Positions 1 to 16,694 of a DNA stretch of 64,000 nt are shown here, one piece after another. Within the stretch, counting starts at the first letter, position 1. Each line of letters starts with the position of its first letter. This DNA comes from Lentisphaeria bacterium (GTDB lineage Bacteria; Verrucomicrobiota; Lentisphaeria; JABSQK01; JAWLHB01), in NCBI GenBank assembly GCA_041690595.1, contig JAWLHB010000029.1, positions 1 to 64,000 on the forward strand, in the 5' to 3' direction. A model generated the notes under the pieces. That model saw only the letters and a program-made list of their open reading frames with translations, did not search any database and was not told the origin of the DNA. A program made the position numbers and the translations under genes.

Positions 1-1
1 C

Positions 2-1114
2 GCTCAAAACCTCGGCCAAAACCTCGGTCGTATCGAGGGGTCTGGGGAGGTGCGCCTCCCCAGCGGGGTCCGGGGCAGCGCCCCGCCGATCCTCTCCGCT
101 GCCCCGCCGCTCCTCTCCGTCTCCCCGCGTCTCCGCCTCTCCGTCTCCCCCTGGCTTGTCGGGATCTGGAGATCCGATCTCCGGAACCCGACAAGAAGCA
201 TCGAGGGGTCTGGGGAGGTGCGCCTCCCCAGCGGGGTCCGGGGCAGCGCCCCGCCGCTCCTCTCCGCTGCCCCGCCGATCCTCTCCGCCGCCCCGCCGCT
301 CCTCTCCATCTCCCCGCGTCTCCGCCTCTCCGTCTCTCCATAGCTTGTCGGGATCTGGAGATCCGATCTCCGGAACCCGACAAGAAGTATCGAGGGGTCT
401 GGGGAGGTGCGCCTCCCCAGCGGGGCCCGGGGCAGCGCCCCGCCGCTCCTCTGCGCTGCCCGTCCCGCCCCGCTTCTTCGCCACCTGCCGATACCCCTGC
501 GCCGTCGCACTACTCGTCAGCGTCACCTCCGCATCCTCCAGCTCCACCACTACCCGCACCGACTCATCCTCCGCCGTCCGCGACACTTGACGTTCCTTCA
601 CCCGCGCCTTCTCCTCCCAGCCGAAGCCCAGCACATGCACCAGCCAGCTTTCCGAATCCATCATCGTCTCCGAAGAACGGCGCTGCGCCACCTCCGCCAG
701 CACCTTCATATACTCCTTTGCCGCGCGCATCCGGTCATACAGGACCGGTTCTTGGATCAGGCCGCCCTCGCCATCCTTCACCCAGCGCACCCCCCGCACC
801 GCCGCAGCCGACCGATCCACCTCACCATTTGCCGACATCACATCCGCCATCGACGTCATCGCCATGGCTCCCAGCATTCCTGCGATCTCCATCATCGACG
901 GAAGCCGCGGCCCCTCCTGAGCTTCCAGCGTACCCATCTCCTCACCTATCAACTCCCGCACCAGCAACTGCACCCGCCCATCCTGCAGCAACTCCGACGC
1001 TCGCGCCTTTGCGAACGACTCCGCATAACCTGCCCGCAGTGCCGCCTTTGCCGCGCAAAAATCCTTCACATACTCCCCCGCGAACCGCCGCATCCGCTTG
1101 CTCAGTCCCCTCAT
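2..1114 (-). CDS. Terminase small subunit-like protein (N-terminal TerS HTH) with a repeat-derived low-complexity C-terminal extension; 3' end lies outside the window
   Basis: Hand translation of the minus frame from ATG at 1114 (GGAGG 8 nt upstream) is stop-free to the window edge, which is why the ORF track omits it. It begins MRGLSKRMRRFAGEYVKDFCAAKAALRAGYAESFAKARASELLQDGRVQ, matching the L-x-KQ-x-F-x-EY-x-D-x-NA-x-AA-x-RAGYS pattern of phage TerS. Confidence 0.7.
   Translation of the reverse strand, partial: MRGLSKRMRRFAGEYVKDFCAAKAALRAGYAESFAKARASELLQDGRVQLLVRELIGEEMGTLEAQEGPRLPSMMEIAGMLGAMAMTSMADVMSANGEVDRSAAAVRGVRWVKDGEGGLIQEPVLYDRMRAAKEYMKVLAEVAQRRSSETMMDSESWLVHVLGFGWEEKARVKERQVSRTAEDESVRVVVELEDAEVTLTSSATAQGYRQVAKKRGGTGSAEERRGAAPGPAGEAHLPRPLDTSCRVPEIGSPDPDKLWRDGEAETRGDGEERRGGGEDRRGSGEERRGAAPDPAGEAHLPRPLDASCRVPEIGSPDPDKPGGDGEAETRGDGEERRGSGEDRRGAAPDPAGEAHLPRPLDTTEVLAEVLS
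32..470. repeat. Composite tandem repeat, about 2.5 units (168 and 189 bp), containing a GC-rich hairpin block and a 41-bp palindrome
   Basis: ATCGAGGGGTCTGGGGAGGTGCGCCTCCCCAGCGGGG-CCGGGGCAGCGCCCCG starts at about 32, 200 and 389. The near-perfect palindrome CTTGTCGGGATCTGGAGATCCGATCTCCGGAACCCGACAAG lies at 155-195 and 344-384. Confidence 0.92.
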
Positions 1115-1173
1115 CTCCACATCCTCCCCTAAGTCAGTTCAACTCCCACGATCACCTAGTCCAACAATCACGA

Positions 1174-1201
1174 ACTATAGCACGTATAACTCAAAAGTCA
1201 A
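1174..1201 (-). promoter_or_regulatory. Sigma70-like promoter for the TerS-like gene
   Basis: Minus strand reads TTGACT-N16-TATAGT with TG-n immediately before the -10 (extended -10), about 60 bp upstream of the ATG at 1114. Confidence 0.55.
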
Positions 1202-1254
1202 GTTTAGAATGGAAACATACGTTGGACTCCCGACTTCAGGCCGATGACCTCAAG

Positions 1255-1585
1255 GTGGGAGGGGTTCTCCGAACCGCGACTTGGATATTGCCATCCCCCC
1301 ACCTGACCACAATTACCCATGGCTTCAGCCTCCAAAGGTCCGGCAACCTGGCAGCCGCTCCCCGAGCGGCGCAGCCCTCAATGTGGGAGGGGTTCTCCGA
1401 ACCGCGACTTGGATATTGCCATCCCCCCACCTGAACACAATTCCATCTACTTCAGCCTCCACAGGTCCGGCAATGTGGGAGGGGTTCTCCGAACCGCGAC
1501 TTTGATAGTGCCATTCCCCCACCTGACCACAATTACCCATGGCCTCAGCCTCCACAGCTCCGGCAACGTGGCAGGGGTTCTCCCC
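1255..1585. repeat. About 92-bp tandem repeat (3 full copies and 1 partial), REP-like head
   Basis: GTGGGAGGGGTTCTCCGAACCGCGACTT...CCCCCACCTGA-CACAATT...CAGCCTCCA starts at 1255, 1383 and 1475, with a partial copy at 1568. The first unit carries an extra GCCGCTC/GAGCGGC hairpin. Confidence 0.9.
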
Positions 1586-1610
1586 CCGCCTATCCTCCAC
1601 GCTCCTTCTT

Positions 1611-1840
1611 TGCGATCTCTGCGTACTTTGTGGTTAACCCCCTGAGCTGCCACCTCCGTGCCCGTCCACTTCGTCCACTTCGTCCACTTCGTCCACTTCG
1701 TCCATACCGTCCACTTCGTCCATACCGTCCATACCCCCACCTTGCCCCAACGGCGCCGCCCCCGCCCCGCCACTCCCCCCAGCTCCTTCTATGCGATCTC
1801 TGCGTTCTTTGTGGTTAACCCCCTGAGCTGCCATCTCCGT
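1611..1840. repeat. 49-bp direct repeats flanking a 9-bp microsatellite
   Basis: TGCGATCTCTGCGT-CTTTGTGGTTAACCCCCTGAGCTGCCA-CTCCGT at 1611-1659 and 1792-1840. Eight copies of CGTCCA(CTT/TAC) lie at 1663-1734. Confidence 0.9.
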
Positions 1841-1940
1841 CTCTCCGTGCCCAGACATTCTTCTCCATAAGTCCGAACCCACTGCAATGCTCCCGTTTGA
1901 GCTCAGTTTCACAGAAACCGGCGTCTCCTTTCGCTCTCTT

Positions 1941-2047
1941 GCCCCAACGGGGCTACGTCCCATAGCCCAGGGTTGTGCCGCCAAAGGCGGTGCTACCCTG
2001 GGTATACTGCCCGCCCACCCATCAACCCCAACCGGGCGTTGCGTCCA
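1941..2047. repeat. REP-like palindromic element
   Basis: Nested inverted repeats GCCCCAACGGGGC, CCCAGGGT...ACCCTGGG and CCGCC-AAA-GGCGG, followed by a degenerate CAACCCCAACCGGGCGTTG. Confidence 0.55.
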
Positions 2048-2250
2048 CGGCGCCGCCCCCTCCCCGCGTAAACTCTCACGTGGGAGGATGGCAATGCTCG
2101 CTGCATCATCATCCCATCGGCTTGCATCCCGTAGAGCCGTAGCTACTTTAGTGCCGAGAACTAGTAACATGAACTTACAGCAGGAGTAGCAAAGTAAGGG
2201 GCTAAGCATACCGGAAGGTATCCCAAAATCGCACCGTATGGGAGGTTGCC

Positions 2251-2508
2251 ATGAAGGGAGAAGTGTTCGCCAGAAATAAGCAGAATGGAATGTTGGCCAT
2301 TCGAACCGAAGAGGGCGTCTTTTCAATCATAGAGCCAATGGGTGACGATTTCGAACTTGGAGACAAGGTCAATTGGAGTGAGGCCGACGATTACCCTCTT
2401 GGAGCCGAGTATGTTCGGAACCTGACAAAAGATGAGCGCGTTGAGGTTTACTTTCAGAATCACTGCGTGACCCGCGAGAACTTGGAATGGCAACTGGGAG
2501 TTCGGTAG
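2251..2508 (+). CDS. Small hypothetical protein (85 aa), beta-rich and acidic
   Basis: GGAGG 5 nt upstream of the ATG; natural-looking composition; AT-richer than its flanks. Confidence 0.65.
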   Translation: MKGEVFARNKQNGMLAIRTEEGVFSIIEPMGDDFELGDKVNWSEADDYPLGAEYVRNLTKDERVEVYFQNHCVTRENLEWQLGVR

Positions 2509-2548
2509 TTATGATTGGCTTGAGCATTAACACGACACTATTGATGAC

Positions 2549-3733
2549 ATGAACATATCCTCCCTTACCGAATCTGACATTTGCGCCAAGTTCATCACGC
2601 CGGCCATTACCGCGGCGGGATGGGATGAGCATCTGCAGATTCGACGGGAGTTCAACTTCACGGATGGGCACATCATCGTGCGGGGCAACTTGCACACGCG
2701 TGGCAAGCGGAAGCGGGCTGACTATCTCCTCTCCCACCGGCCGAACCTGCCGCTGGCTATTATCGAGGCCAAGGACAATACCCACAGCCTTGGCGCCGGG
2801 ATGCAGCAGGCACTGGCTTATGCCGAGATTCTCGACGTGCCCTTCGTCTACGCCTCCAATGGCGATGCCTTCATCGAGCACGACCGGACTACTCATCAGG
2901 AACGCCAGCTACCTCTCGACTACTTCCCCTCTCCCCAGGAACTCTGGGACCGCTATCGGGCCGCCGGAAGCATCACCCCCGACGTGGAGAGGGTCATCAC
3001 CGAGCCCTACCACGTCGAGATCAGCGGCAAGCAGCCACGCTACTATCAGCGCATTGCCATCAATCGGACCATCGACGCCATCGCCCGGGGCCAAGACCGC
3101 GTGCTGCTCGTCTTGGCCACCGGCACCGGGAAGACCTACACCGCCTTTCAGATCATCTGGCGTCTCTGGAAGAGCGGCATCAAGAAGCGCGTGCTCTTCC
3201 TGGCCGATCGCAACATCCTGGTGGACCAGACCAAGACCAACGACTTCAAGCCCTTCGGTACGGCGATGACGAAAATCACCAACCGCATCGCTGATCCCGC
3301 CTATGAAGTCTATCTGGCCTTGTACCAGGCTATCACCGGTTCAGAGGAGAAGCAGAAGATCTTCCGGGACTTCTCCAAGGACTTCTTCGACCTCATCATC
3401 GTGGACGAATGCCATCGCGGCAGCGCCGCGGACGATTCCGCCTGGCGCGAGATTCTGGAGCATTTCGAGGGTGCCACTCAGATCGGCCTGACCGCCACCC
3501 CCAAAGAGACCAGGTATGTCTCCAGCAGCCACTACTTCGGCGACCCCATCTACACCTACTCCCTGAAGGCTGGCATCGACGACGGCTTCCTTGCCCCCTA
3601 CAAAGTACCGAAAGTCAATATCGACAAACAATTTCTGGCGAGCCCACCTGACCGTGAATTTGACCATAATCCTTTGATTTCTAAGCGGTTTCAGGTGGGA
3701 TCTATGGTCCCTCTACGGCTCTACAGTTCGTGA
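2549..3733 (+). pseudogene. hsdR: Type I restriction endonuclease R subunit (EcoAI/EcoEI-like), 3'-truncated
   Basis: Shows N-terminal [13 protein letters not shown], nuclease motif RADYLL...AIIEAK, Walker A ATGTGKT, DECH and TATP. Homology and GC-rich codon usage stop after [22 protein letters not shown] (about 3628). Helicase motifs IV-VI are absent, and no hsdM or hsdS is in the window. Confidence 0.85.
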
Positions 3734-3856
3734 ATATTGCCAATCTTTTGGATCTGTACTTGAATTACCGACCGGATAAGCGCAATATAGCTGCGGTTCA
3801 GCACGTATCCGCCACCGCAAACTTCAGCACCAAATCCTCATGCACGGAAAGAATCC

Positions 3857-4114
3857 ATGTCCGCACGAAGCAAGCGCGAGAAGTTCGAGAAGCTAGCCGA
3901 GAAGAGAACCACCGATATCATCCACAAGATGCGATTGTTGGGCAACCTTTCGAATCGCAGCAATTACGACTACGAGCCAGACCATGTCAAGCAGATTTTA
4001 TCTGCAATTGACGCTGAGCTTAAGGGGCTCAAGAAGCGGTTTGAGGATACCGATGACGAGGGTAGACCCTCCTTCTCATTCAAGACTACCAAGAAAGGGA
4101 AGTCGAAGGAATGA
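3857..4114 (+). CDS. Small basic helical hypothetical protein (85 aa), first gene of the island operon
   Basis: SKREKFEKLAEKRT...RLLGNLSNRSNYDY... reads like a conserved protein; ATGA overlap with the next gene. Confidence 0.8.
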   Translation: MSARSKREKFEKLAEKRTTDIIHKMRLLGNLSNRSNYDYEPDHVKQILSAIDAELKGLKKRFEDTDDEGRPSFSFKTTKKGKSKE

Positions 4115-6027
4115 CTATGTCCACCATACAGTGGTCTTTCTTCGAAATGCCACGACAGTTGATAAACCAAGGCTCAACTTCGGGGGAGTTCTTCAATTCA
4201 GAAAATGATGATAGCAGTGCTGATGCGCTTGTTCGGGAAGCAATTCAGAATTCATTAGATGCATCCCAGGTGCTGGAAAGCGGTGAAAGGAGCAAGGTTT
4301 CGGTCCGCATTCTCGTGTCTAGCCACAACCAGCATCTTTTACCCTCGAAGGCGGAAGATTATTTTTCAACGCTTTGGCCACATCTTCAATCAGACAGTAC
4401 AATTCGCGAGTTGCCAGACCGAAAATCACCTGTCTCATTCATCGCAATCGAGGACTTTGGAACCAAGGGGCTGCGGGGAAATCCCGCTCAAGAAAAGGAT
4501 GGGAAAGGAGATAGCGAGTTTTTCTATTTCTGGCGGAATGTTGGCAGGGGAATGAAGTCTGGCAATGAGCTTGGACGATGGGGTCTAGGTAAAACAGTAT
4601 TCCCAAATGCAAGTAAACTCCGCTCGTTTTTTGGTCTGACAGTGCGGCAGGGGGAAGAAGACGCCTTGCTGATGGGGCAGTCAGAGCTGGATATACACAG
4701 CTTTGATGGTAAGCGGTATTCACAGTATGGCTGGTGGGGGATCACCGAGGCAGATGGCTTTGTTCTCCCATTGCACGAAGGGAAGAGGGTTCAATCTTTC
4801 AGGAATGACTTTCATCTTCAACGCCAGCTAGAGCCGGGACTCTCTATTGTGGTTCCGTATTTGCAGGACGACCTGACACCCGAATCTATAGTTCGGTCTA
4901 TTATTCATCATTACTTCTTTCCAATTTTGGCGGATAAGCTTGAGGTGAAAGTAGAATTTCACGACCAGCTTGTGGAGATTAATGGAACTACCATTGAACA
5001 AGTTGCAGCCAAGTATTTCGAAGAAAAAGAAAACGAAAGTTTCAGAAGGGTGCTTGAGTTGACATTGTGGGCATTAACAAACCCAGAGGAAGAGAGGTCA
5101 ATCCTTAAGTTGTCGGGTGCTGGCAGTTCACCGAGGTGGAATGAGGCTCTATTTGAAGAACATTCTCTCGATAACTATAGAGCTTCCTTCTTCAACGGGA
5201 CGCCAATTGCAGTTCGAGCACCGCTGATAGTCCAACAAGATGGACATGAACCAAACGAATCATTCTTCGATATCTATATCAGGAGCGAGGAGTCCCAGCA
5301 TATTCCTGAAGAATACTATATTCGGCGAGGAGTGCGCATAACGGACATTCGTGCGCTTCGAGAGCGAGGGCTTATTGGCTTGGTTGTGATTGATGATGGT
5401 CCCCTTGTGTCAATGTTAGGGGATGCTGAAAATCCTGCGCACAGGGAATGGCAAAAACGTTCGCCAAAATTTAGGGGAAAGTATATCAGAGGCCCCAGTA
5501 CCTTAGATTTTGTTAAGAACTCTCTTAGAGAAATAGTCCGAATTCTTAATCAAACCGTTGGCGAAGTCGATAAGGAGCTCCTCAGTCATATCTTTTGGAT
5601 TGAACATCCAAAAGATGAAAAAGACAAGAAAGTCAAAAAGAAATCTGATACTGATGAGCCAGGCCCTGAAGTGCCAGACCCTCCTGAGCCACCAAAACCA
5701 AATCCGCGAGACTATTCAGTGCGTGTAGTTGACGATGGATTTTTGATTTCAAGCACAAGCAAATCTATCAACTACAGACTAAGCGTTAGGGTTGCTTATG
5801 ATACAAGAACAGGCAACCCATTTAGGAAGTATAGCGAGTTTGATTTTGATCTGAGTGAGTTGCCGATAGAAATCATTTGCAGCCATGCCAAGGTTCATGA
5901 TATATCAGGAAACAGGTTCATAATCGAACCAATACAAGATTCTTATCAAGTGAAGGTGACTGGCTTCGACAATGAGCGTGATATAATCGTAAAGGTCGAT
6001 AAGAGGATTAATACTGATGAAGCGTAG
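4111..6027 (+). CDS. GHKL (MutL/Hsp90/MORC-type) ATPase domain protein, 638 aa
   Basis: Bergerat-fold motifs: REAIQNSLDA (ExxxNxxDA), IEDFGTKGL (DxGxG) and GRWGLGK (GxxGxG). A Lys/Pro-rich linker precedes a C-terminal beta-rich domain. Confidence 0.85.
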   Translation: MTMSTIQWSFFEMPRQLINQGSTSGEFFNSENDDSSADALVREAIQNSLDASQVLESGERSKVSVRILVSSHNQHLLPSKAEDYFSTLWPHLQSDSTIRELPDRKSPVSFIAIEDFGTKGLRGNPAQEKDGKGDSEFFYFWRNVGRGMKSGNELGRWGLGKTVFPNASKLRSFFGLTVRQGEEDALLMGQSELDIHSFDGKRYSQYGWWGITEADGFVLPLHEGKRVQSFRNDFHLQRQLEPGLSIVVPYLQDDLTPESIVRSIIHHYFFPILADKLEVKVEFHDQLVEINGTTIEQVAAKYFEEKENESFRRVLELTLWALTNPEEERSILKLSGAGSSPRWNEALFEEHSLDNYRASFFNGTPIAVRAPLIVQQDGHEPNESFFDIYIRSEESQHIPEEYYIRRGVRITDIRALRERGLIGLVVIDDGPLVSMLGDAENPAHREWQKRSPKFRGKYIRGPSTLDFVKNSLREIVRILNQTVGEVDKELLSHIFWIEHPKDEKDKKVKKKSDTDEPGPEVPDPPEPPKPNPRDYSVRVVDDGFLISSTSKSINYRLSVRVAYDTRTGNPFRKYSEFDFDLSELPIEIICSHAKVHDISGNRFIIEPIQDSYQVKVTGFDNERDIIVKVDKRINTDEA

Positions 6028-6781
6028 AATCAATCATACTGGAAGGAAAAAAATATCCAGAAAGGATGTCGTACTTACGGTAATTCATCGAGGAAATGAG
6101 CCCTCTACGTTCGAGGCTATACTCGACCTCGACTCCTTGCAGCTACCACCAAATGCTCCAGTTTTTATTGAAGCGTACCACAGAACCAACTACATGAGGT
6201 TTTCGTACGGCACTACGGCTTTGCCTGGCCCCGAATCGCTTCCCTTACTGTCCGGCTTAGAGGGTACCGAACGCATCTACTTCAGGGTGAAGGTCGTAGA
6301 CCCTGAAAATACAGGTCGCATACTCGCTGAGGCAGACAGGCTTTCGCCTAAGGACGCCCAAGATTCGGATGAAAACAGAACATCGCTATTGCACTTCGAG
6401 TTGTGCGATTTAGGTCAAGAGGTATGGCGATTGAACCTGAATCGACAATGGCCAACGCTGGAAGTCAATAATAGACTTCCTGACGGGACATCATTGGCGA
6501 GGAGTGATTTGACATTTAGGGCACTTGTTTACCCTTCTGTTACTCGTCAAATCCTCACATATATTATGTTCTGTCGTAGTGAATCATGGGACGAAGAGGG
6601 CGATGACTGGGAGAGCCTATGGATTCAGTGGGCTATCAAGACACCAGGTGTAGGTTCGCCACCATCTCCTGAGGATGCTGAGGAAGAGAAGATGAATTGG
6701 GTTGATAGTGTTGTTAAGGCTCGAAGCAGGCGCGAGCTTAATCTTGACTCGTACTTAAAGGACTTGGGGGGTGATAAATGA
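6017..6781 (+). CDS. Hypothetical protein (254 aa)
   Basis: Long ORF in AT-rich DNA; overlaps the upstream stop by 11 bp and the downstream start by ATGA. Confidence 0.85.
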   Translation: MKRRINHTGRKKISRKDVVLTVIHRGNEPSTFEAILDLDSLQLPPNAPVFIEAYHRTNYMRFSYGTTALPGPESLPLLSGLEGTERIYFRVKVVDPENTGRILAEADRLSPKDAQDSDENRTSLLHFELCDLGQEVWRLNLNRQWPTLEVNNRLPDGTSLARSDLTFRALVYPSVTRQILTYIMFCRSESWDEEGDDWESLWIQWAIKTPGVGSPPSPEDAEEEKMNWVDSVVKARSRRELNLDSYLKDLGGDK

Positions 6782-7521
6782 AGTTAAGGAAATTTACTAA
6801 TCAGGGACTGGAGGAATTCATAAATATTCTCTTAATTGTAGAAGGAACAACTAGTACACCTGACCAACTATCATCGCTGCTTATTTCGCCTGCTCATACA
6901 GATATTATTTCTCCTGAGATTGAAGTTGAGAAAAAAACTTTTGGCAGCAGGCTGAAGGCAGCAGAATACCTGCGTGATACAATCAGAGGAGCTGAGATGG
7001 AAGAAGACCTTTTACAGGATGGCTCTCTTTGGGCTTGGCTATCTGCACTCTATTTCGAAGAGCTATGCAGTCGTGGCCGCGGCGGTGTCATGAAACCCGG
7101 TGATGTCAGCAGGTGGATACCTGATTCGGACTATAGAAATTACTACAGGCATTTACTTCGTGGTCCCTATAGTACGCTTGAAACATGCCATGATTCTCCT
7201 CATGATGCCGCCTTGCTACTCTACCAGCCACTGAGTAAACCAGGGGATTTCTACGAGCAGCTTGCCGCACGGCAAGAATTTATTACAAATCCAGCAATAG
7301 TGAAGACCGCAACGGCACTCTATTTTGACTTCGAAGCGGGTATGCACAAGAGGGGAGCACAGTCTCGAAAGCGAAAAGGTCATCACCGAAGGTTCATCGC
7401 AATTCTGGACCAGTTTGACCTGACTTATGACCTTTATTCGCTGAGTGCTGAATCTTTAATTGACATGCTGCCGGCAGAATTTGACAGATGGAAGTCAAAG
7501 GTAAATGGCCATGGCAAGTAG
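6778..7521 (+). CDS. Hypothetical protein (247 aa), helical and basic (LWAWLS, YYRHLL motifs)
   Basis: Long ORF; ATGA coupling and GGGGG SD-like sequence upstream. Confidence 0.85.
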   Translation: MKLRKFTNQGLEEFINILLIVEGTTSTPDQLSSLLISPAHTDIISPEIEVEKKTFGSRLKAAEYLRDTIRGAEMEEDLLQDGSLWAWLSALYFEELCSRGRGGVMKPGDVSRWIPDSDYRNYYRHLLRGPYSTLETCHDSPHDAALLLYQPLSKPGDFYEQLAARQEFITNPAIVKTATALYFDFEAGMHKRGAQSRKRKGHHRRFIAILDQFDLTYDLYSLSAESLIDMLPAEFDRWKSKVNGHGK

Positions 7522-7522
7522 C

Positions 7523-9076
7523 CTATAGCTGCTTTAAAATACTGTCTACAACTGCAGCTATTTGTCGCGATAGCAGGGGAGGTACAGCATTGCCAATCTG
7601 AGAATATTGGGCTGTCCTTCCGCCTGAGAACCAATAGTTGTCTGGAAATGTCTGGATTCTCGCGGCTTCACGCACGGTAAGGCTACGGCACTGAGTCGGG
7701 TCAGGATGAATGTAATAATGACCGTCTCGTGCGATATGACAGGTGATTGTAGTTGCAGGACCTCTCCAGAGCTGAACACGAAACCTATCGGCAAAGTTTC
7801 TTCCTGTTGACGCGGCCTCCTTTGCATTCTGGTGGTCTGGCAGTAGGGCAACAGGGAAGTTGCCTAAATATGCCGTACTCTTCTCTATTTCGGCATAGCA
7901 TGCAGCGAACAAATACCTGTGGAGGTCGGAAGGCATGTGCGCTCGTGCTCTGTGGTGCGTGATTCCTCCAATTCTGTTATCCAGATACCAATCTGGGTAG
8001 GCTTGTACCTTGCATAGCTTATTGAGAAAATGGTCATTACCACGGCCGAGCCGAGGAAGTCTCAAACGCTCCACAGTCTTTTCAATCTTTCGCGCGACAT
8101 TCAATTTTCCATTTGTTCTGCACTGCGTTAACCATTCGCTGGAAAGCGTTTCTTGCAGCGTATTGGCCCAATTAGTATTGCTGTCCTCCATCCCCGTCAC
8201 CCCACTTCGAAGCCTCGGTAACCCTTGAATGACATGCCGGACAGTGACTTGCTTCTCAGCCTCTGTCAGCGTGTGGCCATCTTTGAAATCAATATCGTCT
8301 CGAATGCCCAAAATGAATATTCGGTGCCGAGCCTGAGGAATTCCATAGTTTTCGGCACGTACGACGTAGTCTTCAGGAAGAAGGTCCGAGCTATTATCTT
8401 TGTCGACAGAGAGCGAGAAAAGCTTGTATGCATGCGCTGCATAGATGCCAGAATTGCCAATTGCCATCGCGGGGTTCTTGAGGTCTGACATCATTTGTTG
8501 GAAAATGGACTTGTTTTGAACTGTGGAGGACAAGAGGCCCTTTACATTCTCCATGACAAAAACTGGTGGCGAGTGTACAGAAATTGCGCGCAAGTACTGC
8601 TTGTAAAGGAAGTGCCTGTTGTCTTTCTCAGGCTTGTAGTCAACATCACCTTGCCTCCGCGCTCTGCCTGCGATTGAGTAAGCTTGGCATGGTGGACCTC
8701 CCAGCAGTACCCAGCTTGTCGCTTGGCCTACAGCCGTTTTGATTCTTTCGTCCACAGTGGCATTATCGACCTTACCCAGCTCGGCCAGCCAGGCTTTGTC
8801 GGCGGCTGCTTCTGCTTTGCTTTTGAACTTCCTGAATAGGTGTTTATGCGATATTTCCCCTCTGAGAAACTGATAGTACTCATCTGGGACCGAGGATTCC
8901 GGAAACTCGCGAAAAAAGCACCGCATCGTCAGGGTGAGGTGGGCTGACTCTTCTGCCTCAATCGCCAAGTTCACGCTAAAGGGCTTCTTGTCACCATCAC
9001 CATAGGCTGAGAAGCCTTCCCCGAGTCCGCCTGGACCAGCAAACAGGTCTACGACTGGAATGTTGTCTTGGCTCAT
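7523..9076 (-). CDS. dcm: DNA (cytosine-5)-methyltransferase, long form (517 aa)
   Basis: Motif I DLFAGPGG, IV GGPPCQ, VI MENV, VIII QARHR, IX RSLTVREAAR and X QIGNAVPP are all present. Confidence 0.96.
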   Translation of the reverse strand: MSQDNIPVVDLFAGPGGLGEGFSAYGDGDKKPFSVNLAIEAEESAHLTLTMRCFFREFPESSVPDEYYQFLRGEISHKHLFRKFKSKAEAAADKAWLAELGKVDNATVDERIKTAVGQATSWVLLGGPPCQAYSIAGRARRQGDVDYKPEKDNRHFLYKQYLRAISVHSPPVFVMENVKGLLSSTVQNKSIFQQMMSDLKNPAMAIGNSGIYAAHAYKLFSLSVDKDNSSDLLPEDYVVRAENYGIPQARHRIFILGIRDDIDFKDGHTLTEAEKQVTVRHVIQGLPRLRSGVTGMEDSNTNWANTLQETLSSEWLTQCRTNGKLNVARKIEKTVERLRLPRLGRGNDHFLNKLCKVQAYPDWYLDNRIGGITHHRARAHMPSDLHRYLFAACYAEIEKSTAYLGNFPVALLPDHQNAKEAASTGRNFADRFRVQLWRGPATTITCHIARDGHYYIHPDPTQCRSLTVREAARIQTFPDNYWFSGGRTAQYSQIGNAVPPLLSRQIAAVVDSILKQL

Positions 9077-9178
9077 ATATAGTTCATCTGTCAGTTAGTC
9101 TCGTTACCTCAAGGCAGCTTCAGACCTGCGGCAGCAGGGCAACCTATACTATTGCTCGTCTGGCGGCGCTTTCAAGCA

Positions 9179-9604
9179 ATGGACGTTCATAGCAAATCGC
9201 AGCGCAAGAAGAATATGGCAGCCATACGAGCTAAGGATACTAGCCCTGAGCTCAAGGTGCGCCGCCTTCTGCATAGCTTGGGGTATCGCTTCAGGCTCCA
9301 CAGAAAGAACCTGCCTGGTACTCCTGACATTGTTTTGCCAAAGTACCGAACCGTAGTCTTGGTTCATGGCTGCTATTGGCATCGCCATTCTGGGTGTCGA
9401 TACGCAACGACTCCTGCAACCCGGACACAGTTCTGGTTGGGCAAGTTTGCGGCGACCGTGGAGCGCGATTGCAGAAACCAAGGTCTTTTGCGTGAGCTTG
9501 GCTGGCACGTCATTGTTGTCTGGGAGTGCAAGACCAAGGATAGCGATAACCTTGCGATGTTCTTAGCGGACGCTCTGGAGGGCGACAACTCGATTAGCAG
9601 TTGA
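9179..9604 (+). CDS. vsr: Very short patch repair endonuclease
   Basis: MDVHSKSQRKKNMAAIRAKDTSPE, LPGTPDIV, VHGCYWHRH and GWHVIVVWEC; start reassigned to the ATG at 9179. Confidence 0.96.
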   Translation: MDVHSKSQRKKNMAAIRAKDTSPELKVRRLLHSLGYRFRLHRKNLPGTPDIVLPKYRTVVLVHGCYWHRHSGCRYATTPATRTQFWLGKFAATVERDCRNQGLLRELGWHVIVVWECKTKDSDNLAMFLADALEGDNSISS

Positions 9605-9642
9605 GCATGCCAAGGGCGTGGCGAGTACCTACAGGAGGAAGT

Positions 9643-9984
9643 CTACCTCACTGGCAGTGAGCTGCTGGCAACTTGTAGAGCCTCCAGGGCGGCATCAAGC
9701 TCCATTTGCCGCGCATCCAGCATCTCATCGGTGTCAGCAAGCGGCAGTCGGCAGTATAGCAGTAGCTGACCAACTTGCGGGGCTCGAACGTAGACCCTAA
9801 GCCGGTTCGGAATTGTCAGGAAGCTATGGCTATCCAGTAGCTTCTTGCCGAAATCCATTGCGGCCTGGGTTACCTTGCCTCCGTATTCAGGCAGGGCATC
9901 AGCTCGCACCTCGTCCTGGAAAAGCATTGAGGCGACAAAGCCGCGTTGCTCATGGTCGTAGGTGATTTGGATGTCGTTGAACAT
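9643..9984 (-). CDS. Hypothetical protein (113 aa)
   Basis: AGGAG upstream of the ATG at 9984 (MFNDIQITYD...); no recognisable motif. Confidence 0.55.
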   Translation of the reverse strand: MFNDIQITYDHEQRGFVASMLFQDEVRADALPEYGGKVTQAAMDFGKKLLDSHSFLTIPNRLRVYVRAPQVGQLLLYCRLPLADTDEMLDARQMELDAALEALQVASSSLPVR

Positions 9985-10629
9985 GCTCACTCTCCTTCTG
10001 TTTAGACTGTAGCTTTGCAAACGCTGGTATCCAATCTAGCACCGGTGTTTGAGAGATGCTAGTCGCATTGCCATGCTTTTTCGGAAGCTGGGGCTGATTG
10101 AGGGAATCCCGATAGAATTGGGCTTAGGACTTCCCTATGCTCCTCCATAGGCCAGTGAAGCCACCAGCAGACGCTGTTCTGCCGTAAGTCGTAGCATTCC
10201 CTTCAGGGCCGACGTAGAACATGAACTTCACCTCCGGTTCGAATTGGACTTTAGGCATAACATGAATGACTATATCTCCGACTTTAATACATATCAATAG
10301 GCAATCGGGATGCCAGAAAGAAAATGTCCTATTTTACTGAAGTTCGTTCGCTTTGGTAACCTATTGATGGCTTGGCGCATGCACTACTCACCACCACGGT
10401 CATGTTTTGCCTGAACACACTGTAAAGTCAAGCCTCCCTCTTCCATGCCATCCAATATGAGCGCGTTAAACACAGATTTTCTCAATACTAAACATACTAA
10501 GTGCCCACAGTAATACTGCCAATGGTCAAGACATATCAGATTGACATGGGGCGACAACTTAGCTGAAGCAAGCAACACCGTCAAACTCCCGACACCGCGC
10601 CTTCCTGACCATCCCTTCCAGACTTGCCG

Positions 10630-10988
10630 CTTCCCGTTGACTCTGAATAATTTGCGCCGTTGCTTCAGGCGATTCGTCAATGCCGACAAGGAAACGTCCG
10701 GGAGAGCGTCTCCGAGCTCACGTTGCATTGCGTAGTGGTCACTCAGACAGCAGCAGGACCGTTCACCACCTTTTCAGTGGCGCCAGGCTTGCCGTTCTGC
10801 CTGGACGTGGTCTGATAGCGGAGTGCACCTTCTGAGATGAGCGTTCTGAGGCTGTAGAGCAGCGTTTCGTCGGTGGCTCCTGCCAGTTCCTCGATGGCCA
10901 GCACCTTGTGGCGCAGCGCGTTCTTGTCCAGGTAGAAGAGGCACTTGGGGCTCAGGCTGGAGACTCGGACGATGCTTTCGGGCGGACC
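10630..10988 (-). pseudogene. Decayed fragment of the P-loop region of a mobile-element primase/helicase-like protein
   Basis: Hand translation gives PPESIVRVSSLSPKCLFYLDKNALRHKVLAIEE...YSLRTLISEGAL...VNGPAAV, then a stop (TGA at 10743-10745), then VTTTQCNVSSETLSRTF, then a frameshift into LVGIDESPEATAQIIQSQR. Confidence 0.6.
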
Positions 10989-11073
10989 TTAGAATCGGGG
11001 ATACCTTGGACGCTACCTTGAGCAAGTGTGGTGCTGGGGACTATTTTCGCAATGTTTTTGAAGGGGTAGGGTT

Positions 11074-11599
11074 ATGACGCAGTGGGTGGCGCTGGCGGTG
11101 CTGATCGTGGTAGTGATGGTGGTGGTGAAGCTCTTGGGGGCGGGGGAGAAGAAGAAGCTCCCGTATGAGCTGCGGTCGCCCTTGTTCAGCGCGGCCGAAC
11201 GCTCGTTGCTTGGGGTTCTCGATGGCGTCGTGGGGCCGGAGCTGCGGGTCTTCGGCAAGGTGCGACTTGCCGATCTGGTCACCACGCGCAAAGGACTCGA
11301 TGCGCGGAAGCGGCAGGCTGCCTTCAACAGGATCCAGTCGAAGCATGTCGATTTTTCTGCTTTGTCGGAGCGACACTCTGGAGCCGGTACTGGTCGTCGA
11401 GCTGGACGATGCTTCGCATGACCGGCCCGACCGCCGGGAACGCGATGGCTTCGTCGACGAACTCTTTGCATCGGTGGAGCTGCCGATTCTGCACCTTCGG
11501 GCGCGAAAGAGCTATGAACCGCATGAGATCCGCCGGCAGATCGAGGAGGCCCTGCGCATCGGTGAGCCTGTGCTGGCCGTCCCGAGCCAAAAGGCATAA
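11074..11599 (+). pseudogene. DUF2726-family (PD-(D/E)xK-like) protein with N-terminal membrane anchor, +1 frameshift
   Basis: LFSAAERS...KVRLADLV...IQSKHVDF in one frame continues as LLC...VVELDDASH...RRERDGFVD in another. The extra T lies in the run at 11352-11356. Confidence 0.85.
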
Positions 11600-11691
11600 C
11601 TAACCAACCTAGCGCGGCCGTCGGCCGCAACCAAAGGTTTTTTAGTCTCGGGATGACACTTCACGAACTTCAACATCTGACGATAGCAGGA

Positions 11692-11911
11692 TTACCACGA
11701 AGAGCACGAAGTTGCCAATAAGTAATGATAACGATATTTCCTGACTTTATGACGTTGCCACTGACCTAATATATTTTCTATATCCTTTCAACCCATTCTT
11801 CGTGCTCTTCGTGCTCTTCGTGGTTAAAATCTGCCAGGTTCTCTCTCCCACCTACCGTCATTTCTATAGCCTATCAATCCAATCTCCGTGTCTCTGTGCC
11901 TCCGTGGTTAA
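11692..11911. repeat. Inverted pair of 9-mer/GTGGT repeats plus a variant copy
   Basis: TTACCACGAAGAGCACGAAG (11692-11711) is inverted relative to CTTCGTGCTCTTCGTGCTCTTCGTGGTTAA (11798-11827). A variant CTCCGTGTCTCTGTGCCTCCGTGGTTAA lies at about 11884-11911. Confidence 0.8.
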
Positions 11912-12003
11912 ATATGCCCGGCTCTCTCTCCCGAACCCCTTTCACAGACATCAGGATGATTCCTATGCCTTTCTATGCCTAACCGTCATTCCTATAGCCC
12001 ATT

Positions 12004-12292
12004 AACCCAATCTTCGTGCTCTTCGTGCACTTAGTGGTTAAATATGTCCGGTTTGTTCTCCTATCAACCCAATCTTCGTGCTCTTCGTGCTCTTCGTGGT
12101 TAAATATGTCCGGTTTCTTCTCCCATCAACCCAATCTTCGCGCTCTTCGTTCTCTTCGTGGTTAAATCTGTCCGGTTCGTTCTCCCATCAACCCAATCTT
12201 CGCGCTCTTCGTGCTCTTCGTGGTTAAATCTGTCCGGTTTCTTCTCCCATCAACCCAATCTTCGTGGCTCTTCGTGCTCTTCGTGGTTAAAT
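12004..12292. repeat. 62-bp tandem repeat, about 4.7 copies
   Basis: AACCCAATCTTCG-GCTCTTCGTGCTCTTCGTGGTTAAAT-TGTCCGGTT--TTCTCC-ATC starts at 12004, 12066, 12128, 12190 and 12252. Confidence 0.95.
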
Positions 12293-12311
12293 CTTGGCTC
12301 TGCCCCGCCCC

Positions 12312-13073
12312 TTACTGCTTCGGCATCGCGAAGAGCGCGTCCGGGATATCGATGTTGTAGGCCACCGATTTGATGGTGGTCACGGCGGTCATGTGCGGCA
12401 GCTTCTGCTCCAGCTTGAAGGGCGCCTTCATGCCGTCGACGTCGCGATAGTCCGACATGGTGGTCTCCACCCGTACCGTCTCCGTCGGCGTCTGCTGCAC
12501 CTGGTCGGTGCGCACCATCAACCCGCTCTTCTGCTCATAGAAGTTGACCATCTCACTGGCCTCGCCTTTTGGCTTCAGGCGCAACACATAGACGGGGCTA
12601 TCGTTGAGGACGGTTTCCCCCATCAGCTCGGTCGTCTCGTAGCTCTCCCGCCAGTTGACCATGTGGGCGAAGTCGGCGGTGAAGGCAAAGTTTGCCAGCT
12701 CGACACCCTCCATCTTGCGCAGCCCGAGCAGGTCTTTGTTCCAGCCGGTTTCGCCATCGAAGCCCTGCTCGATGACCATGAGCCCAGGTATTTCCATGCG
12801 CGTATGCAGGCGGTTCGGCGCCTTCGCCTGCAGATGCATGTTGCCGCGAATATTCATCGCCGCCAAGCTGATCTCAGCCTCCATCGAGAGCGACTTCAGC
12901 TTCTCATACGCCTCTTTGCCGCCAGTGACTTCAACGAAGTGATCCAGAACCTTGGCAGCGGTCACCTTGCTGCTCTCCGGCAGAGGTTTCACCTCGCTGT
13001 AGCGGTCGTTCTGTGCATGGATCAGCAGGGTGCAGGCCAGCAGGGCTATCGTGTGAATGGCAAAGCGCTTCAT
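12312..13073 (-). CDS. Exported LolA-like / lipoprotein-sorting-type (DUF620-like) protein
   Basis: Signal peptide; QGFDGETGW, YRDVDG-x-K-x-PF and C-terminal N-x-DIPDALF patterns. Confidence 0.65.
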   Translation of the reverse strand: MKRFAIHTIALLACTLLIHAQNDRYSEVKPLPESSKVTAAKVLDHFVEVTGGKEAYEKLKSLSMEAEISLAAMNIRGNMHLQAKAPNRLHTRMEIPGLMVIEQGFDGETGWNKDLLGLRKMEGVELANFAFTADFAHMVNWRESYETTELMGETVLNDSPVYVLRLKPKGEASEMVNFYEQKSGLMVRTDQVQQTPTETVRVETTMSDYRDVDGMKAPFKLEQKLPHMTAVTTIKSVAYNIDIPDALFAMPKQ

Positions 13074-14371
13074 GGTGGGTCCTTCGGGTTGGTGGCTTTC
13101 AGGTCGAGCAGAGCGGCCGCGGCCGCCTGCAGAATGGCATCGCCGCGAGAGAGCAGCAGGTCGCGAGTCAGCTCCACCGGAAGATCCGGCAGTACGCCCC
13201 GACCCTCCAGAATAGTCCCCCCAGCCGTGACAAAATCCGCTACGGCATACTGGAGTTTGGCCCCATTCTCCAGCTCTATGATCATCGAGGGCATCACCGC
13301 CCCCAGCGTCTGGCGACCGACCACCAGCGCGCGCCCCACCTCCTGAAGCCCCGCGGCAAGGATCTCCGCCGTACTGCCCGTGCTCTCGTCCACAAGAATC
13401 GCCACCGGCCCAAGGTAAGGTGCCGGCTGCGGGAAGACCGGATAGCGGATCTCTCCATCCGGCATGCGGCTGACGCCCAGGCTCAACCGCTCCTCCACCA
13501 GCTTCCCCGCTATCGGTGACGCCAGCATCCCCATCCCCCCGGGATTGCCGCGCAGATCGAGGATCAGCCCCCGCTTCGTCCGGAGTCGATCGATCGCCGA
13601 ATTAAAGAGCGGTAAGACCGCCGGCATGAAGATCGAAAGATGAATATAACCCAGCTCTCCGTCAAGCTCACGCACCTCCACGCGTACCGTCAACGGCGGC
13701 AGATTGCCAACCTGGCTCGTCGTGCCCGGAGCTTCCAGCCCTTCAAGCACGTACTCGCGCGACTCCCCCTCGCCGTCCACCGCTACCAGCTCCACCGTCT
13801 CCCCCACGGGCGGCGACAGCAGGGCACTCACCCCGTCCGTCGCGAAATAGCGCTTCTGCGTAAGCCGTCCCGGATGGCGCTCCAACCGCTCCACGACCTC
13901 CCGCATCTGCACGCCACGCACGCTCACCAGCTCGAATCCAGGCCGGATGCCCGCCTTCGCCGCCGGTGACTCCGAATCGACCCGAACGACCAGCATCCGG
14001 TCATCCACCAGTTGAACCGTCATCCCGATGTAGCCACGGCCCATGTCAAACTCAGGCATCTCGTCCCCGGCGTCTTCGGGGCCTGGGGGCTCAATCATGT
14101 GGTGGGACAACCCCAACCGCTCCAGCATCTCGTTGAGCAGGTTGTAGAGGTCGTTGACCTCCTCCGTCGCCTGCAGGTCATCGGCAAATTCCCGGCGCAG
14201 CTCGATCCACTTCTCCCGCATATCGCCGGTGAGTCGTTCACCGATCTGGTCCACCACGCGCAGCCGGTCGACGACAGGCGCATCCTCCGTCACCGGCTCG
14301 GCGGCCAGCCCGAAGGCGACCGCGAGGGTGAGGATAAGCGTCAGCAGTCGTCGGCGGTGCTCATGTCGCAT
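13070..14371 (-). CDS. S41 family peptidase with PDZ domain
   Basis: Signal peptide, PDZ (SPAAKAGIRPG), LILDLRGNPGG, TGSTAEILA and GRGVLPD. Confidence 0.9.
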   Translation of the reverse strand: MRHEHRRRLLTLILTLAVAFGLAAEPVTEDAPVVDRLRVVDQIGERLTGDMREKWIELRREFADDLQATEEVNDLYNLLNEMLERLGLSHHMIEPPGPEDAGDEMPEFDMGRGYIGMTVQLVDDRMLVVRVDSESPAAKAGIRPGFELVSVRGVQMREVVERLERHPGRLTQKRYFATDGVSALLSPPVGETVELVAVDGEGESREYVLEGLEAPGTTSQVGNLPPLTVRVEVRELDGELGYIHLSIFMPAVLPLFNSAIDRLRTKRGLILDLRGNPGGMGMLASPIAGKLVEERLSLGVSRMPDGEIRYPVFPQPAPYLGPVAILVDESTGSTAEILAAGLQEVGRALVVGRQTLGAVMPSMIIELENGAKLQYAVADFVTAGGTILEGRGVLPDLPVELTRDLLLSRGDAILQAAAAALLDLKATNPKDPP

Positions 14372-15425
14372 CGGCAGGCACCTTCAACGCCAGTTGTCCG
14401 CAGGCACCATCCAGATCACGGCCGAGCGTCTTGCGTATCGTGGCGCTGATGCCATGGCTGATCAGGTAGTCCTTGAAGGCGCGAGCCGTGGTGCGTGAAC
14501 TCGCCTGCAGGTGCTGATCGGTCGGATTACACGGGATCAGATTGACCGTCAGGAGGTGCGGCGTATGGAACTGCCGCAGGTACTTCGCCAGCTCATCCGC
14601 ATGCCGCGAACTGTCATTCTTCCCGTCGATCAGGATGTATTCGATGAAGAGCTTGCGATTCGTCGTCTTGACGTAGTAGGCAATGGCTTCCGCCAGCAGC
14701 TCCAGCGTGAACTTCTTGTTGATCGGCATCATCTCCAGGCGCAGCTCGTCATTGGCGGCATGCAGGGAGAGCGCCAGATTCACCTGCGGATAGCGGTCGG
14801 CCATCTCCTTCATCGCCGGCACCAGCCCGCTGGTGGAGACGGAGAGGTGCCGCGCCCCGATCCCAAAGGTGCCGGGATTCATCAACTCATCCAGGCTGGC
14901 AAAGACCGCCTTCTTGTTCTGAAACGGCTCACCCATGCCCATGTAGACAACATTGGTCAGCGTCGCCTCGGGGATCTCCTCCGCCATGAACTGCCGCCAG
15001 AACAGCACCTGATCGCTGATCTCCTCATCCGTCAGGTTCCGCGTGAAACCGAGCTTGCCGGTAGCGCAGAACGAACACCCCAGCGCACAGCCGACCTGGC
15101 TGCTGATGCAGCACGACCAGAGTCCCGGCTTCGGGCAGAGCAGCACGGTCTCGATGCGCTTGCCATCCTCCAGACTGAGCAGCGCCTTGAAGGCCAGGCC
15201 GTCGCTCGATCGCAACAGCCGGTCGGTGGTTACGGTCATGGCCGTATACTGGGCCGTCAGCTTCGCGCGCAGATCCCTGGACAGGGTCGTGATCGACTCG
15301 AAGTCCTTGCGATGCAGGTTGAAAAAGCCATTCCGCAGCTGATCCGCGCGAAAGCGCGGCAGTTCCTGCTCTGTCACAATCTGTTGAATCTTCCGGTCAT
15401 TCACGTCGCTGTTTGCTCGCTTCAA
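14361..15425 (-). CDS. rlmN: 23S rRNA/tRNA m2A methyltransferase (radical SAM)
   Basis: CISSQVGCALGCSFC, MGMGEP and C-terminal GACGQL. Confidence 0.95.
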   Translation of the reverse strand: MKRANSDVNDRKIQQIVTEQELPRFRADQLRNGFFNLHRKDFESITTLSRDLRAKLTAQYTAMTVTTDRLLRSSDGLAFKALLSLEDGKRIETVLLCPKPGLWSCCISSQVGCALGCSFCATGKLGFTRNLTDEEISDQVLFWRQFMAEEIPEATLTNVVYMGMGEPFQNKKAVFASLDELMNPGTFGIGARHLSVSTSGLVPAMKEMADRYPQVNLALSLHAANDELRLEMMPINKKFTLELLAEAIAYYVKTTNRKLFIEYILIDGKNDSSRHADELAKYLRQFHTPHLLTVNLIPCNPTDQHLQASSRTTARAFKDYLISHGISATIRKTLGRDLDGACGQLALKVPADAT

Positions 15426-15509
15426 GTAATGAATTGCACGCTACCCCCCACCCTCCTTAATATGCGCCCGCACACCCCTTCGTTCAACTTGCCGCCACCA
15501 GGCGGTCCG

Positions 15510-16694
15510 CTACAGGCTCTGCGCGGCCGAATACGCCGAGGCCCACGCCCACTGAAAATTGTAGCCCCCCAGCCACCCCGTCACGTCTACCGCCTCTCCG
15601 ATGAAGTAGAGATTGCGGTACTTCCGGCACTCGAAGCTCTTCGACGACAGCTCGTCGGTGGAGACACCCCCGAGCGTCACCTCGGCGGTTCTATACCCCT
15701 CGGTTCCACCCGGCTTGAACTGCCAGTTGCCAAAATGGTCCGCAACCGTCTGCAACTCCTGTTTGCTCAGTTGCCCAAGCGCTTTGACCGGAAACCATTC
15801 CCCCGACACCCGCTCCACGAACCGGGACGGAAAATGCGAGGCGAGGAATCGCGACAGCGACTGACCGGGATTCTCCTCACGGGCAGCCGTGAAGAAATCC
15901 AGCGCGTCATGGTCCGGAAGCAGATTGATCGAGACGATCTCCCCCTCCCGCCAATACGAGGAAATCTGCAGAATCGCGGGACCGCTCAGACCGCGATGGG
16001 TGAAGAGCAGATTCTCCCGGAAGGAAGCCCGGCCAAGCGTGACCTCGACATCCAGCGAGATGCCGCTGAGCGGCAGAAAGCGTGCCTTGTCCGGTTCATT
16101 CCACGTAAAGGGCACCAGCCCCGCCCGGGGCGGCACCACTTCCAGCCCGAGACGATTGGCGCAACGCAGCGCAAAGTCGCTCGCCAGATTCGGGATCGAA
16201 AGGCCCCCACTCGCGACAACGACGGTATGGGCGACCAGCGGTGGAGCATCGGCAATGCGGATGAGAAACCGCCCGTCCTCCTGGTGCGTCAGCTCCTGCA
16301 CGTCATGGTCGCAGGCAAGGTGTACCCCGGCGGCAGTGCACTCGTCCAGCAGCATATCGAGAATATCCTGCGAGGTGCGGTCGCAGAAGAGCTGGCCAAG
16401 CTTCTTCTCGTGATACGGGATCCCATGCGCCTCGACCAGCGCCACAAAGTCTTCTGGCGTGTAACGCCGCAACGCCGAGATGCAGAAGTGCGGATTCCGC
16501 GAGAGAAAGCTCTTGCGCGGATCGGTCAGCAGATTGGTGAAGTTGCACCGTCCGCCACCGGCGATCAGGATCTTGCGCCCCGGCTTCCGCCCTTTCTCCA
16601 GCAGCAGGACGCGCCGGCCGCGCCTGGCGGCTTCGATGGCACAGAGCAACCCGCTCGCGCCCGCGCCGATAATGACGACGTCCGCTTCATTCAC
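15510..16694 (-). CDS. HI0933/BaiN-family NAD(P)/FAD-dependent oxidoreductase
   Basis: IIGAGASG, GGGRCNFTN, LFTHRGLSGPA, AEVTLGGV and GWLGGYNFQWAW. Confidence 0.92.
   Translation of the reverse strand: MNEADVVIIGAGASGLLCAIEAARRGRRVLLLEKGRKPGRKILIAGGGRCNFTNLLTDPRKSFLSRNPHFCISALRRYTPEDFVALVEAHGIPYHEKKLGQLFCDRTSQDILDMLLDECTAAGVHLACDHDVQELTHQEDGRFLIRIADAPPLVAHTVVVASGGLSIPNLASDFALRCANRLGLEVVPPRAGLVPFTWNEPDKARFLPLSGISLDVEVTLGRASFRENLLFTHRGLSGPAILQISSYWREGEIVSINLLPDHDALDFFTAAREENPGQSLSRFLASHFPSRFVERVSGEWFPVKALGQLSKQELQTVADHFGNWQFKPGGTEGYRTAEVTLGGVSTDELSSKSFECRKYRNLYFIGEAVDVTGWLGGYNFQWAWASAYSAAQSL

Follow-up and report, generated by a model that had tools for sequence, protein, structure and literature searches.

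The closest catalogued relative of the system described here is PDC-M33, a phage defence candidate (PDC) in PADLOC whose proteins A, B and C are represented by models of 627, 289 and 247-346 positions, C being DUF6339/PF19866. In the account of Payne et al. (2024, bioRxiv 10.1101/2024.01.29.577857), the 145 PDCs are candidates drawn from genes that lie within BREX, DISARM or type I restriction-modification (RM) loci; the main text of that preprint does not mention M33 by name. Our literature search, which did not reach most subscription journals, found nothing on PDC-M33, DUF6339 or the genes considered here. A second point of comparison is paraMORC2, for which Iyer, Abhiman and Aravind (2008, PMC2292703) give an ExxxH motif late in the S5 domain as the mark. 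Here we analyzed a 64,000-nucleotide stretch of a Lentisphaeria bacterium genome (assembly GCA_041690595.1, contig JAWLHB010000029.1, positions 1 to 64,000; "the window"), in which four genes, g1 to g4, including a GHKL ATPase gene (g2), lie beside genes for a C5 cytosine methyltransferase (C5 MTase) and Vsr. As judged by sequence comparison, the conserved unit is g2-g3-g4 (the trio), a remote sister of PDC-M33 and, by its models, not a member. The kind of system is already catalogued, as the PDC-M33 candidate, and the claim of an earlier note on this DNA that the system is undescribed does not stand: it has this remote sister and carries the paraMORC2 motif.

The features of the locus are as follows.

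2549..3628, + strand: 5' half of hsdR, EcoAI-type type I (NF046051, E 6e-184, model positions 1-356 of 768)
3857..4114, + strand: g1, 85 aa, basic (pI 9.7), an optional accessory protein without a family match
4111..6027, + strand: g2, 638-aa GHKL+S5 ATPase (motifs, AF2 fold and a weak PDC-M33A match)
6017..6781, + strand: g3, 254-aa conserved core subunit, in the PDC-M33B position by gene order
6778..7521, + strand: g4, 247-aa mainly helical core subunit, remote DUF6339/PDC-M33C homologue by HHalign
7523..9076, - strand: long C5 MTase, 517 aa, intact, DrmMII-like (PF00145, E 4e-44; PDLC02649, E 1.3e-92)
9179..9604, + strand: vsr, very-short-patch repair endonuclease, 141 aa, divergent from the MTase gene (TIGR00632, E 4e-42, above cut-off; PF03852)

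All six open reading frames (ORFs) from g1 to vsr are open. The overlaps between g1 and g4 are ATGA, 11 bp and ATGA, and the g4 stop is separated from the stop of the convergent MTase gene by 1 bp. The MTase has its motifs FAGPGG, GPPCQ, ENV and QIGNAV. This six-gene layout is as the earlier note had drawn it, coordinates included, except that the vsr start is most likely ATG 9179, because the protein read from that start falls within the Pfam Vsr match from residue 1 onwards (TTG 9152 is less likely). Its statement that Z1, AIPR and a clear restriction endonuclease (REase) are lacking also holds, in that no such model, and no Mza or DISARM-core model, matched g1-g4.

Mza and class II DISARM have the long C5 MTase subfamily and vsr in common with the window, and Mza also has a GHKL ATPase. 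However, the models for MzaB-E (MutL-like, Z1, DUF4420 and AIPR) matched none of the 10 window proteins scanned, while the same PADLOC models do match in loci L192-L194, and the DISARM core genes drmA, drmB and drmC were absent among the same 10 proteins. The trio occupies the place where the Mza and DISARM II effector modules stand. Tiamat is an anti-phage GHL ATPase often found near methylases, for which an RM-like model is proposed; its authors' account presents a single ATPase-DNase protein set apart from MORC and paraMORC (bioRxiv 10.64898/2026.09.30.754977). No Tiamat model matched g2.

The trio and its predicted proteins

Of 443 matches in genomes and 431 in metagenomes, the best 80 each were taken as loci, a sample biased towards the query alignment. 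By tblastn over the 160 loci, g3 was found in 147, g4 in 138, a C5 MTase in 34, vsr in 30 and g1 in 7. De-duplication at 90% and a requirement for room downstream left 107 loci, and g3 and g4 follow g2 in 106 of these; the operon is therefore not a chance arrangement. The two intergenic gaps measure at most 20 bp in 90/97 and 91/97 complete trios, and the pairwise identities of the three proteins across the 97 trios are correlated (r 0.91-0.95). By these comparisons the conserved unit is three genes, not six. Computationally, it is shown that purifying selection acts on the three, which are inherited together, and that the C5 methylases paired with this module are of several unrelated kinds or, at some loci, lacking. 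The six-gene neighborhood of the earlier note does recur as a layout, complete with convergent long C5 MTase and vsr, in L074 and L149, where it lies between unrelated genes without a recognized REase, and in variant form in L110, L117, L150 and L151; in seeing a defence-like GHKL cassette, which is also mobile, the earlier note is borne out. As an obligate unit the six genes fail, with g1 homologues directly upstream of the ATPase in 7/136 loci and, of 54 loci that have 5-kb flanks, 21 with a C5 MTase at most 5 kb away (17/62 at most 3 kb away).

The hosts include Planctomycetota, Nitrospirota, Nitrospinota, Thermodesulfobacteriota, Pseudomonadota, Bacteroidota, Myxococcota, one cyanobacterium and the archaeon Methanoregula. 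A strong match was present in 6/301 genomes of the host phylum, and in one phylum sample the figure was 2/201 genomes, the centre genome being one of the two. Viral contigs gave no relative and phage records none of g4, and a single-sequence search for similar loci found nothing. Among the neighbors of the trio are type I RM (L014, L107 and the window), type III RM (L038), McrBC (L029), EcoRII-type RM (L008) and PLD/SNF2 helicases (L004, L023). A second GHKL protein, of HATPase_c_3 type, lies near the trio and a C5 MTase in L060, L062, L068, L075, L076, L122, L128 and L141, and at L023:11902-14019 g3 is split by a Mutator-family transposase.

Pfam and NCBIfam gave no match to g2, and PDB sequence searches with g2, A1, A2 and A3 gave nothing significant. 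The AF2 model of g2 (pLDDT 89) matched TopoVI-B (E 1e-10), Hsp90 and MORC2 in Foldseek. With VIA, residues about 14-483 matched SMCHD1 (Z 15.3, root mean square deviation [rmsd] 3.9, 310 aligned) as well as GRP94, TopoVI-B and MutL, the top four rows being near-tied. The model thus predicts a Bergerat fold and then an S5 transducer domain, followed at about 490-530 by a linker that is disordered and, at about 530-636, by a separate beta-sandwich at the C terminus, the last with generic VIA matches (Z<=7). Conservation of the N-box (ExxxN), DxGxG and the glycine-rich lid was assessed in 116 g2 sequences: N47, D115, G120, G155, G158 and G160 are each present in 116/116, E43 in 113/116 and G117 in 111/116. 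E440 and H444 of the ExxxH motif are likewise invariant (116/116). It is therefore shown computationally, on a predicted model, that g2 carries an intact GHKL+S5 engine, and the GHKL identity that the earlier note gave the 638-aa protein stands on motifs and predicted fold, though Pfam and NCBIfam are silent. The family is large, with 2472 homologues among 8000 candidates scored. Some ATPases have an N-terminal extension of ~240-270 aa with a long acidic linker (L020:9170-11887, from Nitrospinaceae, and P0065, P0083 and P0097); the idea that these are g3 fusions was dropped on inspection. A comparison of the g2 C-terminal domain with the N-terminal half of g3 returned a probability of 4% and was likewise set aside.

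Library scans of g1-g4 gave no match to known nuclease or REase families, and none to any family for g1. Homologues of g1 are also found in L178 and L179, and g1 is possibly a regulator or DNA-binding subunit. The 90 members of g3 gave no meaningful PADLOC, Pfam or PDB match, and g3 and g4 are not paralogues. The g4 family comprises 1973 clusters at 50% identity. Its AF2 model is confident (pLDDT 94), and Foldseek searches of PDB and BFVD with it returned nothing at E<=0.001; the best VIA match among 48,161 chains (Z 4.0, rmsd 3.8, 69 aligned) does not prove a new fold. In the ESM Atlas, g3 matched unnamed clusters only, and leads for g4 stayed below 0.9. With a confident model and no recognized structural relative, g4 could act by a new mechanism. 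Its near-invariant polar residues are H125, R205, Q212, D218 and E234, and the positions that it has in common with DUF6339, among which one Trp and two Arg are prominent, look unlike a shared metal-nuclease site. In three proteins g4 is fused to other sequence: two of them end in a zinc ribbon joined by a linker, and one starts with an unassigned domain of ~130 aa (P0123, P0264, P0169).

Like PDC-M33, the trio consists of three adjacent co-oriented genes that match A-B-C in order and sizes. Residues 6-308 of g2 matched PDC-M33A model positions 3-290 of 627, weakly (E 1.9e-22) and over the ATPase half only, whereas the true member L183 matches at full length (E 3.9e-193). An HHalign comparison of g4 (237-sequence alignment) with M33C (49 sequences) gave a probability of 91.8% (E 7e-7, 229 columns, full length), against 0.2-0.3% in cross-controls. 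The ExxxH motif is also present in L183, L184 and L185, and the same small g1 gene precedes the true PDC-M33 loci L183 and L184. However, 0/90 g3 proteins matched the B model and 0/87 g4 proteins the C or DUF6339 models of PADLOC and Pfam; therefore, these models would not call the trio, and a large family is invisible to the PADLOC B and C models and to Pfam. A large clade without a methylase, described below, is a further difference. Alignments of g3 with PDC-M33B were colinear and never significant, whether local, global or by half-domain (best HHalign E 0.006, probability 6%), and a single-sequence comparison of g4 with the third gene of L185 gave no match. L185:6695-11458 (NZ_CP102071.1) is an Enterococcus plasmid locus with an HTH gene, AIPR and a PDC-M33-like trio, and no methylase annotated in the 13 kb shown.

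With paraMORC2 as Iyer et al. (2008) describe it (PMC2292703), the trio has in common GHKL+S5 with a strongly conserved ExxxH, an association with C5 methylase and Vsr, and lateral mobility. In that description paraMORC2 is mostly cyanobacterial and Gram-positive and lies near SFII helicases and REases, whereas the trio is mostly found in Gram-negative phyla without a conserved helicase or REase; clustering of its neighbors yielded no widely recurring helicase or REase family, with methylase and Vsr present at the window. By its ExxxH motif, g2 appears paraMORC2-like. The trio ties the 2008 paraMORC2 prediction to the candidate PDC-M33, with a methylase that is exchangeable and, in one clade, absent.

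Methylases and the methylase-free clade

vsr is present in 19/21 MTase-linked loci. In a tree of 43 MTases, those linked to the trio span at least six deep lineages. Some from other lineages than that of the window bring their own REase, EcoRII-C in L008 and REase_II in L127 and L184, and the L035 MTase also falls outside the lineage of the window's long enzyme. The window MTase subfamily was found at E<=1e-60 in 8/300 other genomes of the host phylum, of which one locus is trio-linked (G011); the remaining seven have MzaB-E (three), MzaE (one), DrmA/B (two) or lie on a 2-kb contig (one), and in none was a trio gene found. The link to a methylase is real, and methylation is probably optional to the module, outside the core of the mechanism.

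In ATPase trees of 79 and 73 sequences (six long-branch rows were left out of the latter), one clade of 33 loci has support of 99 in both. No C5 MTase was present in the flanks of these loci, which extend at least 5 kb on each side in 26 and at least 2.5 kb in 7, and no vsr match was found in them. This group was drawn after the tree had been seen; its shuffle test is circular and was not used. PF00145 was detected in 3/15 genomes of the clade (none in 12/15), compared with 9/14 in the positive control and a background C5 MTase rate of 45/201 genomes, in a census in which most genomes are metagenome-assembled and of uncertain completeness, single absences are not proof, E thresholds differ and the background comes from one phylum. 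A 5mC-dependent (type IV; 5mC, 5-methylcytosine) role for the clade found no support, its C5 MTase frequency (3/15) being that of the background.

The trios of this clade are intact in 29/33 loci, and the 7 pairs without saturation gave dN/dS values of 0.07-0.27 (an eighth was saturated): the MTase-free trio is under purifying selection. Strict 5mC self-marking therefore cannot hold family-wide, because this clade keeps the trio under such selection with no C5 MTase nearby. The earlier note's proposal that 5mC marks self while the complex attacks unmodified DNA is thus lost as a general rule and is possible for the window lineage. At least 12/33 of the loci have RM, toxin-antitoxin or defence neighbors. 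When the tree is rooted on L178 and L179, a history in which the methylase was lost is the simpler one, on a tree whose root and deep branches are weak; the position of the window in it is weakly supported. The MTase-linked and MTase-free versions offer a direct test of an older proposal in which prokaryotic MORC-like ATPases act as readers of methylation.

Candidate mechanism and alternative readings

The reading that we favor, as a tentative one, is that the trio is a self-contained, ATP-driven, DNA-acting defence module of the paraMORC2/PDC-M33 superfamily that is triggered by structure in the invader DNA and for which 5mC is an optional self-mark. The module moves between genomes and often settles next to or within RM and defence loci; at the window it would have taken the place of the 3' half of hsdR. 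As MutL, TopoVI-B and MORC suggest by analogy, g2 would form an ATP-dependent dimeric clamp, and g3 and g4 would be its partner subunits. The trigger would be a structural feature of incoming DNA, such as ends, overhangs or replication intermediates, and not one fixed unmethylated sequence, and the complex would block that DNA by trapping it or by an unrecognized cutting activity in g3 or g4. The methylase would be an exchangeable addition by which self-reactivity is reduced or discrimination sharpened, and Vsr would repair the T:G damage that the methylase causes. In favor of this reading are the trio linkage, the GHKL motifs and fold, the foreign GC content at a truncated hsdR, the patchy distribution, the layout in common with PDC-M33, the variety of linked MTases and the persistence of the MTase-free clade under selection. 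A precedent is class 1 DISARM, in which, as reported in 10.1101/2021.12.28.474362 and PMC9142583, losing the methylases brings no autoimmunity and a 5' overhang sets off DrmAB.

Several points weigh against this reading. The structure trigger is borrowed from DISARM, an unrelated helicase system, and PDC-M33, the nearest catalogued relative, is itself only a candidate. No nuclease or DNA-binding fold was recognized in g4. Outside the 33-locus clade, a C5 MTase lies within 5 kb in 36/40 loci, and methylation may be essential there. Within the clade, ~20/33 loci have no defence gene among the subset of neighbors scanned, and a deltaproteobacterial/Desulfobacterales subclade (L046, L080, L118, L119, L121, L125, L126) holds the trio in conserved housekeeping synteny, with TPR, NUDIX and ABM genes upstream. 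This synteny suggests vertical inheritance and, together with the defence-free neighborhoods, fits domestication.

The linkage in 36/40 loci is also an argument for an unlikely alternative, in which the window lineage is a cognate RM system whose long C5 MTase marks a motif that g1-g4 restrict when unmethylated, the MTase-free clade having secondarily lost or altered that function. Consistent with this, the tree places the window enzyme together with six further MTases linked to the trio (SH-aLRT 92), whose loci have no recognized REase in the available flanks and show several gene orders, and g1 is found mostly in MTase-linked loci. However, the partner MTases of the trio are mutually unrelated, several come with the REases named above, the same core persists without any C5 MTase, and no nuclease was recognized.

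PrrC and PARIS are guard systems that fire on phage infection or RM inhibition. It is conceivable, though improbable, that the trio is likewise an independent, probably abortive-infection module that rides with RM loci and fires on these cues, with methylation irrelevant. The variety of its neighbors (type I and type III RM, McrBC, EcoRII-type RM and PLD/SNF2 helicases) is in keeping with this, as is the description of PDC systems as found embedded in RM, BREX or DISARM (bioRxiv 10.1101/2024.01.29.577857). However, the trio is the likely partner of the MTase in L074, L149 and the window, where no other effector was recognized for that enzyme; a toxin-like effector domain was looked for and not found, and the GHKL+S5 engine points to DNA handling.

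A variant that we consider decidedly unlikely is that the trio is a bacterial MORC/SMCHD1-like machine that would neutralize foreign DNA by entrapping or compacting it with ATP, without cutting, with two subunits of uncharacterized fold and an ancestral 5mC dependence shed in one large clade. If true, nature would have supplied the same engine in two forms, one gated by methylation and one free of it, and eukaryotic MORC silencing of invaders would have a prokaryotic model. Least probable, and very doubtful, is a non-defence role in DNA maintenance, as a MutL-like accessory of Vsr repair or, especially in the MTase-free clade, a domesticated topology or repair machine: MutL works with Vsr in the account of Iyer et al. 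(2008, PMC2292703), vsr accompanies nearly all MTase-linked loci and the Desulfobacterales synteny is of a housekeeping kind, but the MTase-free loci have no vsr match, the distribution is very patchy (2/201 genomes in the phylum sample), the GC content at the window is foreign and defence neighbors are frequent.

Insertion site and flanking DNA

The GC content is 45-48% in g2-g4, 50% in the MTase gene and 53% in vsr, versus 59% in hsdR and 61.5% in the genome, and the similarity of hsdR to a 794-aa relative stops at 3628, where the cassette begins, the hsdR frame continuing to 3733 in unrelated sequence. The AT-richer DNA after a broken hsdR that the earlier note had pointed to is therefore real. 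The C-terminal part of hsdR had no tblastn match in the host assembly (97% complete), and no DNA match to g2-g4 was found in 20 relatives. On these sequence data, the simplest reading is that the cassette arrived by horizontal insertion or replacement at the truncated hsdR. No terminal repeats bounding the cassette were found, promoter and terminator scans were at chance level, and Rfam gave no match in window 1-16000.

Three further ORFs were recorded around the cassette by family scan.

2251-2508, + strand: small ORF, 85 aa, no family, flanks the cassette
9643-10020, - strand: small ORF, 125 aa, no family, flanks the cassette
11074-11421, + strand: short DUF2726 gene, beyond the cassette

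The window also contains, at 11766-12307 and about 1250-2075, a tandem array (62 bp) and several families of dispersed repeats between genes, of which the rest of the genome has many further copies; these are probably REP- or MITE-like elements (repetitive extragenic palindromic or miniature inverted-repeat transposable).

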